A DNA stretch of 61,776 bases from assembly GCA_017508285.1 (NCBI GenBank), contig JAFVZG010000067.1:1-61776 (forward strand), in the 5' to 3' direction. Position numbers and translations under genes: made by a program. Below are positions 1-60,996 of the stretch, piece after piece. The stretch comes from Lentisphaeria bacterium. GTDB taxonomy: Bacteria > Verrucomicrobiota > Lentisphaeria > Victivallales > Victivallaceae. Every line of letters starts with the position of its first letter. Position 1 is the stretch's first letter. Under the pieces are notes generated by a model that was not told where the DNA came from, did no database searches, and was given only the letters and a program-made list of their open reading frames with translations.

Positions 1-100
1 GCACTTTCGCGCCTTGCTTCTGGGCCGGTACGGTCGAGTACGGTAGTACACTCCCGCACCGTACCCGGCGAAAACACGACATTGCCGCCCGCTGCATCCA

Positions 101-231
101 CCGGGTGCAATCAAATCGTTTCATGTTTTTGACCAATCATAATGTAAGTGATATATTCTATGTGTCGCCATAAAATGTGTTCATTCGGTCTTGTATGTAT
201 GTTTCACAAAATTTGGGACATTACCAAAAAA
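101..231 (+). repeat. Copy 1 of a 131-bp dispersed direct repeat (promoter-like part plus invariant 75-nt segment); candidate small RNA / leader unit
   Basis: ccgggtgcaatcaaatcgttt...tttgggacattaccaaaaaa recurs at 41859-41989 and 60819-60949 in the same orientation. Only 3 positions vary (122, 134, 156 in copy-1 numbering). Confidence 0.9.
129..157 (+). promoter_or_regulatory. Sigma70-like promoter inside repeat copy 1 (TTGACC - 17 bp - TATATT)
   Basis: -35 at 129-134 and -10 at 152-157 with an exact 17-bp spacer. The spacer shares ATCAT..TGTAAGT with the tRNA-Lys promoter. Confidence 0.5.
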
Positions 232-274
232 TTCATTTTCGCAGTATCGTGAGCATCTCTGCAAATGGAGTGCC

Positions 275-310
275 AAAAAAATAGGGCTGTCCGCTTTTTG
301 CGTCCAGCCC
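275..310. terminator. Hairpin terminator downstream of the 930-aa gene (minus strand), possibly bidirectional
   Basis: GGGCTG(284-289)...CAGCCC(305-310) with inner CGC/GCG pairs. On the minus strand it is followed by TATTTTTTT (275-283). On the plus strand a T6 run lies at 318-323. Confidence 0.6.
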
Positions 311-328
311 CGATATGTTTTTTGACCT

Positions 329-3121
329 TTATTTAGCGATATTCACTCTGCCGAATTTAAGCGGCACATGGTAACCGCCGCCGGTGAGACCGCACCAGTC
401 TCTGCCCTGTGAGCAGACATTGAGGGTGAAGTTGTCACCTTTTTTCACTCCGACCAATTCGGTCATGGTTTTCCACGGGATAAATACCCGGAAATTGGCG
501 ATCTCGTTATTGCACGATGCTTCGGAACTCCATTGGAAAAACGATTTGGTATCGACTACCCGCTTGCCGCTGGGGAGGAATACGGTTTTGATATCCTGCT
601 GGGTATTGAGAGTATTGAGTACCAGTTGGGCGAAGTTTTCGGAACCGGGTTTACCGAGGAATACCTCCATGCAGAGATCTTTCCAGACATCGCCGTCGCG
701 TTTGGTGACCACTGATTTTTTGCCGATCTGATAGCGGACAGCGAGGTCGATATGCACTCCGTCATCATTGACAAAAAGTTTGGCGGAATCCGGGCGCACA
801 GGGGATTTCCAGGTTTCCATCAGATTTTTGGCGTTGTTCCAATCGACTTTGGAACCTTTGGAAATGGGGATGGAGATCTCCTGATTGGGTTTGACATTCA
901 TGAATTTATCTTTCATCTGCGCCATGAATTCCTCATGGGTGAGGCGTTCAAGTTTGGCAAGATTGCGGCTTTCCAGAGCGATGATGCCGCTGCCGGCTGC
1001 GCCGAAAGAGAATTCCACGGCTGCGCCGCGCTGAACCATTTGGCAATTCCAGAGTTTCTGCGGAGCAAGTTTAAGATCTTTGATGACTGATTTGGAGAAA
1101 TCGACCTTGACTTTTGCCGGTTTTTTATCGGGATTGACCGCCAGCAGCCACGCTTTTTTCCTGTCGGCGGAAACGATGACCTGAAATTCCGGAGCTTTGT
1201 CGCCGGTGACGGTAAAGGGATCTTTCAATTCCGGGCCGAGCAGACCGTCGGCGATGGCGGCAATGGCGTGATTCAATTCGCAAAAGCGTTTCCACTCTGC
1301 CGGGTGGTCGATGGGAGAAAGGCGGTGCAGACGGTTCGGGGCAAGGCTGGGATTTTTCTCTGCCGTTTCCCACCACTGCAAGCCTTTGACACCGTGGATC
1401 AGCGGCAGAATAGCCATGGCGCACAACTCATCGGCATTGGGCATACGCTGTTTATCCCCCGGCCACCGGAAAGCCTGAGCGATGAAGATCAGCGGGCGGT
1501 TTTTTCCGTAAAATCTCATATAATCAATGGTGTAACCCATATCAGCGATATTGCCGTTGGCAATGGGGTAGTGATCGAGGCTGAGTACATCGGAAACGAC
1601 AAAACAGTCACGGGAGTTGGAGTTGGCGGCGAAGTTGACACTGGTGACGGTGTTGGGCATCAATGCTTTCATCAAAGCATTGAGCAGCACGAATTTGCGG
1701 TAGGTGAAATCCGGATGGTTCTCCGGTTCATCAAAGAGGTGGATAAACGCCACATTGGCAGGGTTGAAGTTGAGCATATCGCGCACCTGCCGGTCATAGG
1801 CGAAGCGGTCTCTGCCGCCGACGACATATTTGCCGGTGCTGTAATTCCAGCCTTTCCAGACCCAGTGAGAGGCATTGGCACCGACTTCTTTGTAGCGGGG
1901 ATTATCGGGATTCACGCCGTAGCAGAGAATGGGGAAAAATGGTTTGCCGTTGACCAGGATGCTGTTGTTTTCGTCGATGACTTTGCCCGGTTTGTGATAT
2001 ACCATGCCGTAATGTTCGAGCATTTTTTCAGCGAATTCCTCCGGGGCGATATCGGGATTTGCCGCCAGAAGTTTTTCCCCGAATTCCGGAACCGGTTTGA
2101 TCTCCGGAACCAGTGCTCCAAGTTTCATGGCATCGACGGAATTCGGGTCGAATTTCGGATCGGCGGTAAGGAGCAGTGAGTCGCCCCAGCCGCCGCCGGT
2201 GCCATCGAGATTAAGGAGAAAGAGGATCTCATCTTCCGAAAATGAGCCGACTTTAGCCCACTTCAAATTCTGCCGGGGCAGCTGAACTTTTTTTTTACCC
2301 AGCATTACGGAAAAAGGGCGACCGGCACTGTAACGGATAAAGCAGTTGTAACTGGCGGCTTTGCCCGGTTTTTTGATGAGGAAAGGATATTCCTGATCGT
2401 TGTACCAGATGCCTTTTTTGCCGATGGAAGTGCTGCTGTCGACCTTCCACGGGCCCTGAATGCTTTCCAGTTCCAGCCGGTAGGTTTCCGGCGGCACCGG
2501 AGAGATCGCGAGTTTGCTGTTTCCGGCACCGGCTTTGCCGTAGACGCGGATCTCGGTGACAGCCAGAACCATCTGTTTGTAGTTGCTGCTGACGATTTTG
2601 AGCATCGAACTTTTTTTGCCGACTTTGACGGTCACGGGGTAAGGTTTACTCTCTTTTAACTCAGTCTGAGAGGCGACGGCGGGAGTTTCCCAGAGCCACT
2701 GATCCTGTTTTTTCTCATTGGCACAATAGACTTCCACCTTGTTGATAAAGTGACTTTTGAACGGACGCTGCCAGACTTCCACATAATCCACGTCGCACAC
2801 ATCGCCGAGATCGAGGATGACGGTGATCTTCTTGTCGTGATGGCTCCAGTCGTAGGTTTGGATGAAGGTATTGAATTTACCGTCATTCAATGCGGAAATT
2901 TTATTGTGTTTGATAAATGCCGGAGCTTCATACCAGCCGGTTTTCTGCACAATGGTGGTGGATTTCTCATTCAGCGACTTGTCAGTACCTTTGATCTGCT
3001 GGTTTTTCCAGTACTTTCCTTCCATTTTCATACTGTCGACACGGTAATTGAGCATATCGGCAGCGGCGGCACCCAGCGAAGCCGCGGCAATGGCACCGGA
3101 TAACAGGAATTTGATGTTCAT
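329..3121 (-). CDS. Large secreted glycoside-hydrolase-like protein with an N-terminal discoidin/F5-8-type-C-like domain and a C-terminal CBM9-like domain
   Basis: 930-aa ORF. Signal peptide MNIKFLLSGAIAAASLGAAAA. The N-terminal region has a discoidin-like pattern and the C-terminus looks CBM9-like. Family assignment is by eye only. Confidence 0.6.
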   Translation of the reverse strand: MNIKFLLSGAIAAASLGAAAADMLNYRVDSMKMEGKYWKNQQIKGTDKSLNEKSTTIVQKTGWYEAPAFIKHNKISALNDGKFNTFIQTYDWSHHDKKITVILDLGDVCDVDYVEVWQRPFKSHFINKVEVYCANEKKQDQWLWETPAVASQTELKESKPYPVTVKVGKKSSMLKIVSSNYKQMVLAVTEIRVYGKAGAGNSKLAISPVPPETYRLELESIQGPWKVDSSTSIGKKGIWYNDQEYPFLIKKPGKAASYNCFIRYSAGRPFSVMLGKKKVQLPRQNLKWAKVGSFSEDEILFLLNLDGTGGGWGDSLLLTADPKFDPNSVDAMKLGALVPEIKPVPEFGEKLLAANPDIAPEEFAEKMLEHYGMVYHKPGKVIDENNSILVNGKPFFPILCYGVNPDNPRYKEVGANASHWVWKGWNYSTGKYVVGGRDRFAYDRQVRDMLNFNPANVAFIHLFDEPENHPDFTYRKFVLLNALMKALMPNTVTSVNFAANSNSRDCFVVSDVLSLDHYPIANGNIADMGYTIDYMRFYGKNRPLIFIAQAFRWPGDKQRMPNADELCAMAILPLIHGVKGLQWWETAEKNPSLAPNRLHRLSPIDHPAEWKRFCELNHAIAAIADGLLGPELKDPFTVTGDKAPEFQVIVSADRKKAWLLAVNPDKKPAKVKVDFSKSVIKDLKLAPQKLWNCQMVQRGAAVEFSFGAAGSGIIALESRNLAKLERLTHEEFMAQMKDKFMNVKPNQEISIPISKGSKVDWNNAKNLMETWKSPVRPDSAKLFVNDDGVHIDLAVRYQIGKKSVVTKRDGDVWKDLCMEVFLGKPGSENFAQLVLNTLNTQQDIKTVFLPSGKRVVDTKSFFQWSSEASCNNEIANFRVFIPWKTMTELVGVKKGDNFTLNVCSQGRDWCGLTGGGYHVPLKFGRVNIAK

Positions 3122-5144: not shown

Positions 5145-5172
5145 TTGCAAATCATGTAAGTTGCGGTATATT
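5145..5172 (+). promoter_or_regulatory. Sigma70-like promoter of tRNA-Lys (TTGCAA - 16 - TATATT)
   Basis: -35 at 5145-5150 and -10 at 5167-5172, about 22 nt upstream of the mature tRNA 5' end. Confidence 0.5.
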
Positions 5173-5193
5173 ATAAAAAGTTCACAAATTTGT

Positions 5194-7382: not shown

Positions 7383-7411
7383 TTGAAAAAAAAGGGAAAT
7401 ATTGTTATTTT
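7383..7411 (+). promoter_or_regulatory. Possible promoter for ddh (TTGAAA - 17 - TATTTT)
   Basis: Hexamers at 7383-7388 and 7406-7411 in an AT-rich intergenic region. Confidence 0.3.
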
Positions 7412-7452
7412 AAGTAATATATTTCTCTTCTTTTTTATTGAAAGGTTTTACT

Positions 7453-8451
7453 ATGGCAAAGATTCGAGTTGTTGTAGCCGGTTACGGCAATGTCGGCCGC
7501 GGTGTACTGGCAGCATTGAAAAATAATCCCGATATGGAAGTCGCCGGGGTGGTCAGCCGTAATCCTGACCGGGTGAAAAAGAGTTTTACTGAATATCCGG
7601 TAATGCAGATCGCCGATGTCGATGCATGGCTGGAAGCATTGAAGCCTGATGTCGCCATTCTCTGCGGCGGCAGTAAAGATGATCTGCCGGTACAGGGACC
7701 GGCACTTTGTGCCAGAATCAATACCGTTGACAGTTTTGACAACCACAGCCGGATACCGGAATACTTCAAGGCGATGGATGGATCGGCAAAAACTTCCGGA
7801 AAGGTCGCCGTTATTTCCACCGGTTGGGATCCGGGGATATTTTCCATGGAAAGGGTGGTCGCCAATGCCTTTCTGCCCGGTTCACGGGCTTACGGTTTTT
7901 ACGGCTTGGGGGAATCCGGCGGCTTGAGTATGGGGCACAGTGATGCTTTGCGCACTATTCCCGGAGTGGTCGATGCCCGTCAGTATACTCATGCGGTAAC
8001 GCAATCCATTGAAAAGGTGCGGGCCGGGGAAAATCCGGAATTTACCGCCGGGGATATGCATACCAGAGAGTGCTATGTGGTGCTGGAAGAGGGTGCCGAT
8101 GCCGAAAAGATCGCCGAAACCATCCGCACCATGCCCGGATATTTTGCTCCTTACAAGACTGAGATCCACTTCGTTTCTCAGGAATATCTCAATGAAAAAT
8201 GTGCCGGATTCCCGCATGACGGTCTGGTGGTCGCCGCCGGAGTCACCGGCAGCGGCAATCCGGCACGGGTGGAGTACCGCTGTCAGTGGGGCAGTAATCC
8301 GGAAGCCACTGCCAATGTATTGGTCGCTCACGCCAGAGCCGCAGTCAGACTGGCAGAAGAGGGAAAATCCGGAGCCTTTACTATTCTGGATATTCCTCCG
8401 GCTTATTTTTCCATGCACAGTAAAGAAGAGTTGCTGGCGAAATTCATGTAA
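7453..8451 (+). CDS. ddh: meso-Diaminopimelate D-dehydrogenase
   Basis: MAKIRVVVAGYGNVGRG Rossmann N-terminus, GWDPGIFS motif and a length of about 332 aa. Confidence 0.85.
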   Translation: MAKIRVVVAGYGNVGRGVLAALKNNPDMEVAGVVSRNPDRVKKSFTEYPVMQIADVDAWLEALKPDVAILCGGSKDDLPVQGPALCARINTVDSFDNHSRIPEYFKAMDGSAKTSGKVAVISTGWDPGIFSMERVVANAFLPGSRAYGFYGLGESGGLSMGHSDALRTIPGVVDARQYTHAVTQSIEKVRAGENPEFTAGDMHTRECYVVLEEGADAEKIAETIRTMPGYFAPYKTEIHFVSQEYLNEKCAGFPHDGLVVAAGVTGSGNPARVEYRCQWGSNPEATANVLVAHARAAVRLAEEGKSGAFTILDIPPAYFSMHSKEELLAKFM

Positions 8452-9116: not shown

Positions 9117-9178
9117 GTACCGCCGGCGCATGAGACAGTGAATGCCACTGTCATAGTCATGCACCGGTATTGTTTTGA

Positions 9179-10567
9179 TCAATTAAGCACTCCGGTGGCA
9201 TTGAGCAGAACTATCAGCAGGCAGGGGATCACGATAAAGACCATGCAGAAGCGGTAAACGCATTCGCGGTACCACGGTTTGTCGGTGGTTTTGATCTCTT
9301 CGCAGAATTTTTTCAACCCGATGATGGTGGTCACCAGCAAGGTGGTGAATATCGCTCCGATGGGCATCAATACACTGTTGCTGATAAAGTCAAGGGTATC
9401 AAGGATGTCTTTGCCTTCAAAACCTTTGATGAATGCCAACGGATGCACGTTGCTCAATACGCTGTAACCGAGAACAGTAACGATACCGATGACCACCACC
9501 TCAAAGAGACACATGATGATCGCAATTTTACGGGATATTTTCAACTCCTGCATCACGGTGTGGACATTGGTTTCGAGCAGAGATACCGCACTGGTCGCCG
9601 CAGCAAAGAGAACCAATACAAAGAAGAAGGCTCCGACGATCTGACCTCCGGGGAAACTGGCAAACACCTGAGGCATTACCACAAAAATCAATCCCGGACC
9701 GGCATTTCCCGCCGCTTCTTCGCCGCCGAATGCCACAACTGCCGGGATGATCATCAAACCGGCAAGAAATGATACGGCTGTATCAAAAAGTTCCACATGA
9801 TTCACACTGGATACCAGATCATCCTGACGGCGCATGTATGATCCGTAAGTGATCATGATCCCCATGGCGATAGAGAGGGAGAAAAAGAGTTGTCCCATCG
9901 CCTCCACCACCGTCATATGGCTGAATTTAGACATATCCGGCAGCAGATAGTACTTTACTCCGTATGAAGCATTGGGCAGGAAAAGACAGTAGATGCAGAT
10001 CCCGATAATAAGAAGCAGTAAAAGCGGCATCAGAATTTTATTGAAGCGTTCAATGCCCTTTTCCACACCGAAACATACCACCAATGCCGTGATCAGCATA
10101 AATGCAACAAAGAATATGCACGGCTCCCAGGTGGCACTGATAAAACCGGTGAAATATGCCGCAGATGCTGAATTCTGACTGAATTCACTCACCGGAGTCG
10201 TAAAGAATGCCGCCGCATACCTGGTGACCCAGCCGCCGATAACACAGTAGTAGGGAAGGATTATCATCGGCACGATCGCATTTATCCAGCCGCCGCAACT
10301 GATGAATCTGCCCAAAGCTCCTTTCCCGACGCAAAGATCGCGGAAGGCGCCGATGGGGCTTTTGCCGGTCATTCGACCGATGCTGTTCTCCGATATCAGC
10401 AGGGCGTAGCCGAATGTCAGCATCAAAATCAGATAGGTGAGCAGAAATATTCCGCCGCCGTATTTCGCCGCAAGATAGGGAAAACGCCAGATATTGCCCA
10501 AACCGACTGCTGATCCGGCGGCGGCAAGGACAAAACCAAGCCGGCTGGAAAACCCTTCATTTTTCAT
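9179..10567 (-). CDS. Sodium-dependent transporter, SNF (neurotransmitter:sodium symporter) family
   Basis: GLGNIWRFPYLAAKYGGG signature. Multi-pass membrane protein, 462 aa. Confidence 0.9.
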   Translation of the reverse strand: MKNEGFSSRLGFVLAAAGSAVGLGNIWRFPYLAAKYGGGIFLLTYLILMLTFGYALLISENSIGRMTGKSPIGAFRDLCVGKGALGRFISCGGWINAIVPMIILPYYCVIGGWVTRYAAAFFTTPVSEFSQNSASAAYFTGFISATWEPCIFFVAFMLITALVVCFGVEKGIERFNKILMPLLLLLIIGICIYCLFLPNASYGVKYYLLPDMSKFSHMTVVEAMGQLFFSLSIAMGIMITYGSYMRRQDDLVSSVNHVELFDTAVSFLAGLMIIPAVVAFGGEEAAGNAGPGLIFVVMPQVFASFPGGQIVGAFFFVLVLFAAATSAVSLLETNVHTVMQELKISRKIAIIMCLFEVVVIGIVTVLGYSVLSNVHPLAFIKGFEGKDILDTLDFISNSVLMPIGAIFTTLLVTTIIGLKKFCEEIKTTDKPWYRECVYRFCMVFIVIPCLLIVLLNATGVLN

Positions 10568-26940: not shown

Positions 26941-27927
26941 ATGAAAATGAAAAACCTTGTTCCCGCCGATCGGCGGGTGAAGCATACCTGCTTCACCCTT
27001 ATAGAACTTCTCGTAAGCACTGCTTTTTCATCATCGCGTTTTTTTACACCCAAAACAGCAGCTGAAACTCAACAAAAAAGTTCGCTTTTCTTGAAAAGGG
27101 AAGTGGGGTTTGGGGAGAGGGGAAAAACCTCTTTTCCCGTGAAAAGAAGTTTTTCCCCTCTTCCCAAGAGCGCATTTACTTTAATAGAATTGCTCGTAGT
27201 GATTGCCATCATCGCCATTCTGGCGGCGATTTTGCTGCCGGCATTGAATAGTGCCCGTGAAAGGGGCAGATCCGCCGGGTGTATCAATAACCTTAAACAG
27301 TTGGGTATGGGAGTGGCATCCTACATTAACGATCATGATTACTTCCCGATCGTCGGTCATGCGATCCCCACCGGAGTTTACAATGATGCCGGTTTCTGTT
27401 CATGGAAAATGCCGATCGCTCCCTATTGCGGAATTACTGCCACTCACTATCTTGATATGCGCAAGGCGATTTGCGACGGGGTCTTCCGTTGTCCTTCATG
27501 GAGTGCCGAGGCGACCTCCTGTTCCAATAATCTGGCAGATGTTTCCAATACGAAAACGATGGCACACGGCGGTGGTTATGCCTACAGTTACGGTTCCGGT
27601 TTGGATGGTACCAAACATGTACTCGGTTACAGCGGTAGTGCCGGCGGCGAATGGCTCATGACCAAACCCAATGAAGTTACCAATCCCACTGAAACCGTGG
27701 TCATCGGTGAGCCGGATGATACCAATACCGGTGACCGCAACCACCATACTCTGCTCTATGCTACTGATAAACCCAATGGCAGACATGCCAACTACACCCA
27801 GATGAATATCTCCTGGGCAGATGGTCATGTTTCCTCCAAAGCCAATCGTGAGTTGACTAAAAAGACTGACGGCAGTGACGGCGGGGCAAATGGCAAATGG
27901 GGTTACTATCTGATGGTCAGACGCTGA
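26941..27927 (+). CDS. Prepilin-type N-terminal cleavage/methylation domain protein with two FTLIELL motifs (pseudopilin-like, H-Xn-DG family)
   Basis: First, degenerate motif KHTC|[12 protein letters not shown]. Second, complete motif KSA|[33 protein letters not shown]-terminal [16 protein letters not shown]. Confidence 0.85.
27115..27163 (+). other. About 22-bp-stem palindrome inside the 5' part of the pseudopilin-like CDS
   Basis: gagaggggaaaaacctcttttc - ccgt - gaaaagaagtttttcccctcttc, with one mismatch and one bulge. An in-frame GTG (27139) lies in the loop. Confidence 0.8.
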
Positions 27928-41781: not shown

Positions 41782-41858
41782 GCATGGCGTAAACAAAAAT
41801 CCCTCAATGTCATCCAAGATGCCGGTAAATGGATTGATCTCTTTTGACAAACTGCTCC

Positions 41859-41989
41859 CCGGGTGCAATCAAATCGTTTTATGTTTTTGACAAATCATAA
41901 TGTAAGTGATATATTCTATGTGTCGCCATAAAATGTGTTCATTCGGTCTTGTATGTATGTTTCACAAAATTTGGGACATTACCAAAAAA
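41859..41989 (+). repeat. Copy 2 of the 131-bp repeat, ending 32 nt upstream of the AAC(3)-family start codon
   Basis: Matches copy 1 at all but 2 positions and copy 3 at all but 2. -35 is the consensus TTGACA (41887-41892) and -10 is TATATT (41910-41915). Confidence 0.9.
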
Positions 41990-42021
41990 AGCAGTATTAC
42001 TGTCTTGACACGGGTTTTATT

Positions 42022-42783
42022 ATGCATACAATCAGAAGTTTACATCGGGATTTTGCCGACTCCGGTCTGCGGAGGAGTGATACGATCCTGATACACTCAT
42101 CCATGCGCTCTCTGGGAGATATTGAAGGCAGGGCGGAGGGATTTTTGCGGGCTCTGGCAGAATATTTTTCAGAAGGTCTGGTGGCGTTTCCCACATTGTC
42201 GTGGGATTTGGTCAATGCCAGCCAACCGGTATATTCTGTGCGGGATACTCCCTGTACGACCGGATTGCTGCCGGAGTTGTTCCGCAGTTATCCCGGAGTC
42301 AGGCGTTCTTTGCATCCGACACATTCGATCGCGGCTCTGGGAAAGGAGGCGGAAGATTTTCTTGCCGGTCATGAACTGTTTGATTCTCCGGCACACCGCA
42401 ACTCCCCGTGGGGCAAACTCTATGACCGCAGGGCAAAGATCCTTTTTATCGGCACGACTCTGGCGTGTAATACCTTTTTACACGGAGTCGAGGAGTGGCT
42501 GCCGGTACCCGGTATGCTGACTGAAGATGCTGAAAATCTGGTGGTCTTTGATTATGACTCCAGACGCATAGAGGTTCCTTCCCGCCGTCATGCCGGAGAT
42601 CATTCTCAGTATTATCACCTGATGGAAAAGCGTTTCGCTGATGCCGGCGGTTTGAAATATTCCGTCATCGGTGATGCGGAAGTCCGGATATTGGATGCCG
42701 TCACTGCCGGAAATGTGACCTTTGATCTGCTGTCACTTCACCCGCTGTTTTTTACCGGGGAATTCCAGAATAAACAGAGTTGA
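42022..42783 (+). CDS. AAC(3)-family (aminoglycoside 3-N-acetyltransferase-like) acetyltransferase
   Basis: MHTIRSLHRDFADSGLRRSDTILIHSSMRSLG... is typical of the Antibiotic_NAT family. The start at 42022 is preferred over the in-frame upstream ATG at 41935, which lies in the repeat. Confidence 0.75.
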   Translation: MHTIRSLHRDFADSGLRRSDTILIHSSMRSLGDIEGRAEGFLRALAEYFSEGLVAFPTLSWDLVNASQPVYSVRDTPCTTGLLPELFRSYPGVRRSLHPTHSIAALGKEAEDFLAGHELFDSPAHRNSPWGKLYDRRAKILFIGTTLACNTFLHGVEEWLPVPGMLTEDAENLVVFDYDSRRIEVPSRRHAGDHSQYYHLMEKRFADAGGLKYSVIGDAEVRILDAVTAGNVTFDLLSLHPLFFTGEFQNKQS

Positions 42784-60270: not shown

Positions 60271-60818
60271 AACCGATTTCTCCGGTGATTTTCAATGGCG
60301 GATCGGGGTTCAACTGACCGCATGGGCGGGGCGAACAATATTCCCATACCCTTGCGGGGATAATGTTGATCCATTCCTTTTTTTTGCATTCCCTTGGGGA
60401 AACTCCTGGTTTCAACAAGAGTTTGCGCTCTTTTATCCGGAGAGCGTTTCCCGGAACTGCCCGGAATGAATAAACTATTTTTTACCCTGAATCAACAGGG
60501 ATTCTCGAACCCGGATTCCCGCACCCGGCATCTTGATTCGCACGGTGCATGAAAGAGCAGTTTTTACTGTTTTTTCCGCACCGCTTTACCGGGGGCATCA
60601 AAATCTCCAATATTATATAAAAGCAAAAAATTGCTGCTGATTATAAATATAATACGGTTTTGTCAAAAATAAAGCCATTTTATGAAAAAAAGTGCAAATA
60701 TTTTGTGAATTTTAATTATTGCAGGAGCGATGATGATTTTTACAGCAAAAAAGGTGTGAAACCGCAGTGAAAAATACTCAAATAATAATTATTGTCCCAT
60801 TTGTTGTGATAAAATCCA

Positions 60819-60949
60819 CCGGGTGCAATCAAATCGTTTTATGTTTTTGACCAATCATAATGTAAGTGATATACTCTATGTGTCGCCATAAAATGTGTTC
60901 ATTCGGTCTTGTATGTATGTTTCACAAAATTTGGGACATTACCAAAAAA
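60819..60949 (+). repeat. Copy 3 of the 131-bp repeat
   Basis: Matches copy 1 at all but 2 positions (T at 60840, C at 60874). -35 is TTGACC (60847-60852) and -10 is TATACT (60870-60875). Confidence 0.9.
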
Positions 60950-60950
60950 T

Positions 60951-60996
60951 AAAAAGGTCTGCCGCTTACCTTTTGAGGTTTGCGACAGACCTTTTT
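60951..60996. terminator. Bidirectional hairpin terminator (pckG on the minus strand; would also stop a transcript from repeat copy 3)
   Basis: aaaaaggtctg (60951-60961) pairs with cagaccttttt (60986-60996), with inner CGC/GCG pairs. On the minus strand the stem is followed by TTTTTATTTTTTGG. Confidence 0.75.

Follow-up and report, generated by a model that had tools for sequence, protein, structure and literature searches.

We asked whether a short module that occurs three times in the window (the whole stretch of DNA that was analysed, 61,776 bp and an entire contig) is an RNA gene or a part of a mobile element. An earlier note had described a 131-bp unit in which a σ70-type promoter is joined to an invariant 75-nt segment, and had read it as a candidate multicopy sRNA or leader, with insertion sequences (IS) and MITEs regarded as poor fits. 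At the level of the letters this description was accurate. Alignment with MAFFT and a repeat finder recovered three direct copies on the + strand (96-232, 41854-41990 and 60814-60950, here called copies A, B and C) that differ from one another only at positions 122, 134 and 156, as had been stated, and that show no difference at all over 157-231; a 69-nt core matched the window 3 times, with 0.00 matches expected from 100 shuffles. A promoter scan likewise confirmed TTGAC[C/A]-17-TATA[T/C]T in all three copies; in each, a TG precedes the -10 at a distance of two bases. Of the earlier interpretation, the promoter stands as a sequence motif, whereas the multicopy sRNA or leader does not, and neither does the dismissal of IS and MITEs. 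The 131-bp module is very probably the right-hand portion of an ISH6-family MITE of 156-308 bp with an internal promoter motif. This reading is carried by the repeat itself, its inverted repeats and target-site duplications, its copy number and the identity of its termini with the ends of ISH6-family IS.

The full extent of the element was read from a larger set of copies. A scan that covered one genome for each prokaryotic species, with a 21-mer of the invariant block (GTGTCGCCATAAAATGTGTTC) as the query, gave matches at 29 sites, all of them in one fragmented MAG, Lentisphaerae bacterium SIG80, which contains further mutated ends besides. When the SIG80 copies were printed with their flanks, the likeness on the right side always ended at ...GGGACATTACC, while on the left it reached well past the 131 bp. 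Complete copies, determined by inter-copy BLAST and alignment, are 156, 172, 191, 202/203, 219, 278 or 308 bp long and contain no ORF, and all size classes have in common the left end ATTATTGTCCCATTTGTTGTGATAAAAT and the right ~130 bp. Alignment of the copies also revealed the terminal inverted repeats whose absence had been claimed: they are imperfect and ~24 bp long (ATTATTGTCCCATTTGTTGTGA ... TCACAAAATTTGGGACATTACC), and by our own count the left ATTATTGTCCCATTTGTTGTGA and the reverse-complemented right end GGTAATGTCCCAAATTTTGTGA match at about 17 of 22 positions. The complete copies are flanked by 8-bp target-site duplications, which are perfect in 11 of 17 and match at at least 7 positions in 12 of 17 (mean 0.8, maximum 6, when the flank pairs were permuted). 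These duplications are rich in A and T; their pattern is approximately W-A-T-W-A-W-T-W, the second base being A and the seventh T. The flanking genes differ from site to site among the SIG80 and window copies, which are thus dispersed in unrelated contexts. The earlier note had itself said that its reading would fall if the copies belonged to a mobile element, and the inverted repeats and 8-bp duplications show that they do.

The size classes are set apart by the presence or absence of internal modules, including an internal palindrome of ~120 nt, and are best explained as internal-deletion variants around this palindrome. When the 278-bp form is folded as single-stranded DNA, its two ends pair with each other (z = -3.5). 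The junction that remains in the 202-bp class after the palindrome was lost (e.g. L014 1622-1825) was compared by eye, in the alignment, with a copy of the 278-bp class (e.g. L006 1353-1632): the junction sequence CGGTGGATGCAGCG is the exact reverse complement of CGCTGCATCCACCG in the 278-bp class, and it seems that a palindrome arm was inverted or converted while the centre of the palindrome was deleted.

With these boundaries the three window copies could be placed. Copy A (1..225, + strand) is the right 225 bp of an element of the ~278-bp class, the left ~53 bp of which are lost at the contig start; its bases 1-95 align to the interior of the 278-bp copies of SIG80 (GCACTTTCGCGCCTTGCTTCTG...GAGTACGGTAGTACACTCCCGCACCGTAC...). 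Since the window is an entire contig and starts inside copy A, the assembly broke within the repeat, and many contigs that end inside the element were also found in SIG80 (L002, L003, L004, L018 and L024-L026). The right terminal inverted repeat (IRR) of copy A (202..225, + strand; TTTCACAAAATTTGGGACATTACC) contains relic transposase C-terminal codons, (V)SQNLGH. We placed the boundary here with the help of the duplications that flank the SIG80 copies; the abutting target DNA (226..233; AAAAAATT) would be the right copy of the 8-bp duplication, and its left counterpart lies beyond the contig start. Copy B (41852..41983, + strand, left bound approximate) is truncated on the left and retains an IRR (41960-41983); it is presumably immobile, as its left inverted repeat is absent. 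Copy C (60788..60943, + strand) is complete and, with 156 bp, belongs to the shortest class. It has a left inverted repeat (IRL) at 60788-60811 (+ strand; ATTATTGTCCCATTTGTTGTGATA), an IRR at 60920-60943 (+ strand) and target-site duplications at 60780..60787 (AAATAATA) and 60944..60951 (AAAAAATA) that are identical at 7 of 8 positions; before insertion the site is expected to have read ...ACTCAAATAATA joined directly to AAAAGGTCTG....

The 131-bp unit therefore has to be redrawn on both sides. The true right end of the element lies at 225, 41983 and 60943 (...GGGACATTACC), and the AAAAAA that follows it (226-231 and the equivalent positions) is flanking target DNA, A-rich by chance at all three sites. 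On the left, the element extends to contig base 1 in copy A and to 60788 in copy C. The "invariant 75 nt" are thus young MITE sequence, including the right inverted repeat with the relic transposase C-terminal codons SQNLG, plus six target A's. Copy C inserted into the A-tract of a bidirectional terminator, the strong hairpin of which follows immediately (60951..60996; AAAAAGGTCTGCCGC...GCGACAGACCTTTTT). To the right of copy A, sequence and fold revealed a hairpin GGGCTG..CAGCCC flanked by A and T runs (283..322), which is the terminator of a convergent 930-aa ORF (329-3121, - strand) and is weaker on the + strand.

Which transposase could recognize such ends? A tblastn search of ~230 kb, made up of the window and ~170 kb of SIG80 loci, detected no ISH6-family transposase gene, and an exact left-end 22-mer had no match in the metagenome collection. 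A degenerate pattern for both inverted-repeat ends (TGTCCCAWWTKTTGTGAWA) recovered 120 loci from metagenomes. When sorted by the sequence inside the match, these loci fell partly into large groups that share the terminus GTTATTGTCCCAAATTTTGTGAAA, often located where a contig ends. Two such loci, L121 and L135, have the inverted termini GTTATTGTCCCAAATTTTGTGAAA / GATAATGTCCCAAATTTTGTGACG 1447 bp apart with a single 449-aa ORF between them, and the complete insertion sequence occupies 5888-7334 of L121. The 449-aa protein matches NCBIfam NF041731 (ISH6 family transposase; E=1.6e-144, 481.7 bits, cutoff 240) and gives weak matches to IS256 and Mutator models, including Pfam Transposase_mut; among the members of its protein clusters are one named 'ISH6 family transposase [Victivallis vadensis]' and another that comes from a Lentisphaeria MAG. 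Homologues sit mostly on short contigs of ~1.4-2 kb, as is expected for collapsed IS copies. Related IS, found in L153-L157, have the ends GTTAATGTCCCAAATTTTGTGA... / ...TTTTTCACAAAATTTGGGACATTAAC, and their IRR (GGGACATTAAC) is, by eye, identical to the right end of the MITE at 23 of 24 positions. The 19-24 nt termini of the MITE thus recur both on the 1447-bp IS and on the IS of L153-L157.

The transposase also accounts for the conservation of the right end. In dozens of homologues (proteins P0121-P0240) the transposase frame ends in ...SQNLG(Q/H) followed by the stop codon within the right inverted repeat. With stop codon and C-terminus inside it, the right inverted repeat is constrained both as coding and as transposase-binding sequence, and this is why it is so conserved and why the MITE carries the ORF fragment YVSQNLGH. 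One of the short ORFs that had been noticed in the block is explained in the same way: its ...YVSQNLGHY is left over from the end of the transposase (...CVSQNLGQ or ...FSQNLGH before the stop), which is encoded inside the IRR. Beyond ~25-35 nt at either end the interior of the MITE has no likeness to the sequenced ISH6-family IS, so that a simple descent from those IS by internal deletion is without support. Diverged homologues of the whole MITE were found in metagenomes (L119, L104 and L103; ~74% identity, with the modules in the same order).

Other short elements of the same ISH6-family lineage, ~206-244 bp long, were seen in L064 (about 7567-7810), L148 (about 9150-9357), L093, L120 and L147; they arose independently and come from gut and environmental metagenomes, and those of L064 and L147 keep the last 41 transposase codons. 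One SIG80 copy (L021 about 7400-7616) has a divergent left end, AATATTGCCCCATTGGGTTGTGAAAAAATTC, which resembles GGTATTGCCCCAAATTTTGTGAAAAGC, the left end of an ISH6-family IS in GCA_964402715.1 (L158 about 2900-3000). This likeness hints at more than one sub-lineage of MITE and IS.

Bacterial MITEs are recognized by small size (under ~500 bp), lack of a transposase gene, terminal inverted repeats, duplications of fixed length, dispersed copies and termini homologous to those of an autonomous IS, and the present element, with complete copies of 156-308 bp, has all of these features. Assignment of a MITE to an IS class through its homologous termini follows the definition in PMC7002104; the Halobacterium inventory in the same paper enters no MITE under the ISH6 class. 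ISH6 corresponds to the p-MULT 2 group of Mutator-like DDE transposases (Guerillot et al. 2014, PMC3942029), is distantly related to IS256 and has the AT-rich duplicated-target consensus AANATNTT (PMC3942029). The target of the MITE agrees with this consensus in its 8-bp length, in AT-richness and in A2 and T7, whereas the centre differs, position 5 being mostly A versus T. The MITE thus resembles ISH6 IS in its termini, in the AT-rich 8-bp duplication and in the end of a transposase frame inside the right inverted repeat. In contrast to these IS, it has no transposase, is only 156-308 bp long and has an interior unrelated to the sequenced members; in addition, its host is a bacterium (Lentisphaerae), while all ISH6 members but one in the 2014 survey were archaeal (PMC3942029), and the centre of its target consensus is different. 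A MITE family tied to ISH6-type transposases in Lentisphaerae is apparently new and previously undescribed.

Because the termini of the MITE are those of ISH6-family IS, it is most likely mobilised in trans by an ISH6-family transposase (Mutator-superfamily DDE) of the kind that occurs in Lentisphaeria. Such a transposase would bind both inverted repeats and carry out cut- or copy-and-paste, and the MITE would insert into AT-rich intergenic DNA with duplication of 8 bp of target. That the transposase is supplied by the same genome is something we infer from the family-level identity of the termini. Other kinds of mobile element that came into question do not fit: an IS200/IS605-type PATE or a TnpB/IscB guide-RNA end was rejected in view of the inverted repeats and 8-bp duplications, and the analogies with IS110 bridge RNA and IS605/TnpB omega RNA, in which a constant module is followed by the flank, were rejected on the same two features and on the DDE-family partner. 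A plasmid BLAST with the 308-bp element yielded only a chance match of 30 nt, and L011, considered as a full-length parent IS, contains only a 68-bp right-end fragment with unrelated neighbours.

The copies carry a promoter-like site that matches at 10-11 of 12 positions and has an extended -10. In copy A it lies at 129..157 (+ strand; TTGACC, 17 bp, TATATT, TG at 149-150; 10/12) with a predicted start at about 163-165, in copy B at 41887-41915 (+ strand; TTGACA-17-TATATT, 11/12), and in copy C the promoter scan placed it at 60847-60875 (+ strand). Among 28 aligned SIG80 copies, TTGACC or TTGACA is present in 23 and TGATATATT in 25. However, per-site variation among these copies is 1-3% throughout, save for four shared polymorphisms, so conservation of the promoter within the genome is uninformative. 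The motif reads outward in the MITE consensus; of the diverged relatives, L119 keeps it at the homologous position (TTGACA-16-TACATT with TG), whereas it is degraded in the other two. It points from the left to the right end, in the same direction as the transposase promoter of the full-length IS, where by eye we found TTGACA-17-TATTTT ~35 nt inside the left end; no sequence homology was found between the two promoters. The kinship that had been proposed with the tRNA-Lys promoter is at chance level (the local alignment score of 22 was reached by 22 of 500 shuffles, and other genomic windows reached up to 30). The tRNA-Lys upstream region (5147-5193) contains TTGCAA-16/17-TATATT, followed by TTCACAAATTTG immediately in front of the tRNA, which gives it a superficial likeness to the MITE promoter with its right repeat.

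If the internal σ70-like promoter fires, it would do so toward the right end, and the transcript from each insertion would have a common 5' part of ~62 nt and then run into the right-hand neighbour. Read-out from copy B would enter a gene for an AAC(3)-family N-acetyltransferase, while from copies A and C it would reach a terminator after about 115-160 nt (about 115 nt in copy C, at 60951..60996). Could such transcripts be the reason for the repeat? A multicopy sRNA gene or shared 5' leader, in which the promoter drives a conserved and structured RNA of ~70 nt whose function explains the invariance, would profit from the strong promoter motif, from the terminator hairpins that would yield 115-160-nt transcripts at copies A and C, and from the precedent of MITE-derived sRNAs and promoter-bearing MITEs that are known in other bacteria according to PMC6382973 (its references 54 and 55). 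We nevertheless consider it very unlikely. The 75-nt block folds no better than shuffled sequence (z = -1.07 on one strand, with 29 of 200 shuffles folding as well, and -0.19 on the other), and where longer stretches have good z-scores, these are due to the terminators next to the repeat and not to the repeat itself; thus the region of the copy C terminator, with an MFE of -37.9 kcal/mol and z = -4.2, owes these values chiefly to the hairpin. In the Rfam check that had been suggested, only tRNA-Lys passed the gathering threshold in the window, and a permissive threshold gave only a chance-level snoRNA match in 1-400 (E = 0.46). The helix proposed for the block has the transposase-binding inverted repeat as its 3' arm. 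This arm stays fixed in L119, L104 and L103 while the 5' arm changes (in L119 and L104 GUGUC becomes GCGCC/GCGUC), so that pairs are broken and not compensated, and single substitutions in SIG80 copies break pairs of the helix as well. The invariance of 157-231, which had been taken as a sign of RNA constraint, reflects recent spread instead, as the copies are young and differ by 1-3% everywhere. There is also no common 3' end, since the sequence beyond ...ATTACC is unlike at every site, and spread of the copies by transposition is evident from their inverted repeats and target-site duplications. Thus, the MITE resembles multicopy sRNA families in that near-identical copies occur several times, every one with a promoter-like site of its own, but it differs from them in lacking a significant fold, covariation, a fixed 3' end and an Rfam match, and in being bounded by inverted repeats and duplications. 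A related idea, that active promoters give rise to dozens of chimeric RNAs with the 62-nt MITE 5' module and a site-specific 3' part, and that these act as a functional family and are more than read-out noise, appears unlikely as well; such RNAs may, for example, form a dispersed network of co-regulated promoters, or titrate or regulate the ISH6 transposase.

Two other explanations accept the mobile origin of the sequence and differ in what the copies are now. They could be solo ends of full-length IS, left by deletion at each site and devoid of any independent miniature mobility. Truncated fragments without a left end do exist (copy B, L011 and L022), and some of the related short elements from metagenomes (L064, L147) still contain a piece of the transposase gene; but in no fewer than 17 copies both ends and the common internal modules are present, and each of these copies has an 8-bp duplication of its own at a separate site; the repeated 278-, 202- and 156-bp structures could not come from independent deletions, and no short copy has transposase coding sequence beyond ~8 codons. 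We regard this explanation as highly improbable. Alternatively, the element could be a 'mobile promoter' cassette selected by the host, which persists chiefly because the co-opted promoter drives neighbours in a dispersed regulon. Copy B speaks for this. The AAC(3)-family gene (42022..42783, + strand; Pfam PF02522 and homologues) begins 38 nt 3' of this copy and is co-directional with it; homologues conserve the N-terminus MHT..SL, which identifies ATG 42022 as its start. In the 317-bp divergent intergenic region upstream of the gene, the immobile copy B holds the only good + strand promoter-like site. A second + strand site, TTGACA-16-TACAAT (42005-42032), overlaps the start codon and is therefore unable to serve the full-length ORF. 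It is possible that the dead copy B donated its promoter to the AAC(3)-family gene. The closest AAC(3) homologues are at most 75% identical, and their loci (L029-L032) are not syntenic and carry no MITE. In addition, an ORF starts about 40-150 nt downstream of several of the co-directional copies, and promoter reuse is documented (PMC3575422). However, a crude gene call for all copies showed no orientation bias (the next gene to the right is co-directional in 18 cases and convergent in 13), copies A and C face terminators and the 3' ends of convergent genes, the promoter was lost in the related elements L104 and L103, and the overall pattern fits insertion at any AT-rich intergenic site. Selection for the promoter as the chief reason for persistence is therefore scarcely credible, and the preferred reading remains that of a MITE moved by an ISH6-family transposase.

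How does this MITE compare with other MITEs that carry promoters? Target duplications are 9 bp for MITEAba12 of Acinetobacter and TA for the Correia elements of Neisseria. The present element is like both in being short and non-autonomous, with inverted repeats, target duplications, a preference for AT-rich sites and an outward σ70-type promoter motif, and unlike both in its IS family partner, its duplication length and its sequence. MITEAba12 produces transcripts from one outward promoter (PMC6382973), and Correia elements are cited there as promoter-bearing (Siddique et al. 2011, cited in PMC6382973). According to PMC6382973, the promoters of these elements face outward and can influence the genes next to them. 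In contrast, the present element has a single complete internal promoter motif, located about 95 nt from the right end.

For annotation, these results mean that a candidate sRNA is reclassified as a mobile repeat and that a false RNA gene is avoided. The MITE also explains why assemblies of these Lentisphaerae, which live in the gut or rumen, break at its sequence. It adds an ISH6-linked MITE family in a bacterial phylum to an IS family that was first described almost wholly from archaea, although the feature itself is an ordinary kind of mobile element and will not surprise specialists in the field. Its near-consensus promoter could rewire the expression of neighbours, among them the acetyltransferase gene of the AAC(3) family that follows copy B.

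Finally, we noticed a second dispersed repeat. A palindromic element of ~85 nt is present at 27073-27157 of the window (arms 27110-27136 / 27141-27167) and at 3688-3770 of L019. Its sequence consists of TTGGGGAGAGGGGAAAAACCTCTTTTC / GAAAAGAAGTTTTTCCCCTCTTCCCAA and a conserved tail, CCCTTTTCAAGAAAAGCGAA, and is ~88% identical between the window and SIG80, where it lies 60-140 nt past the right end of a MITE. It may represent a further element of the REP or MITE type or, alternatively, a terminator that has been conserved.
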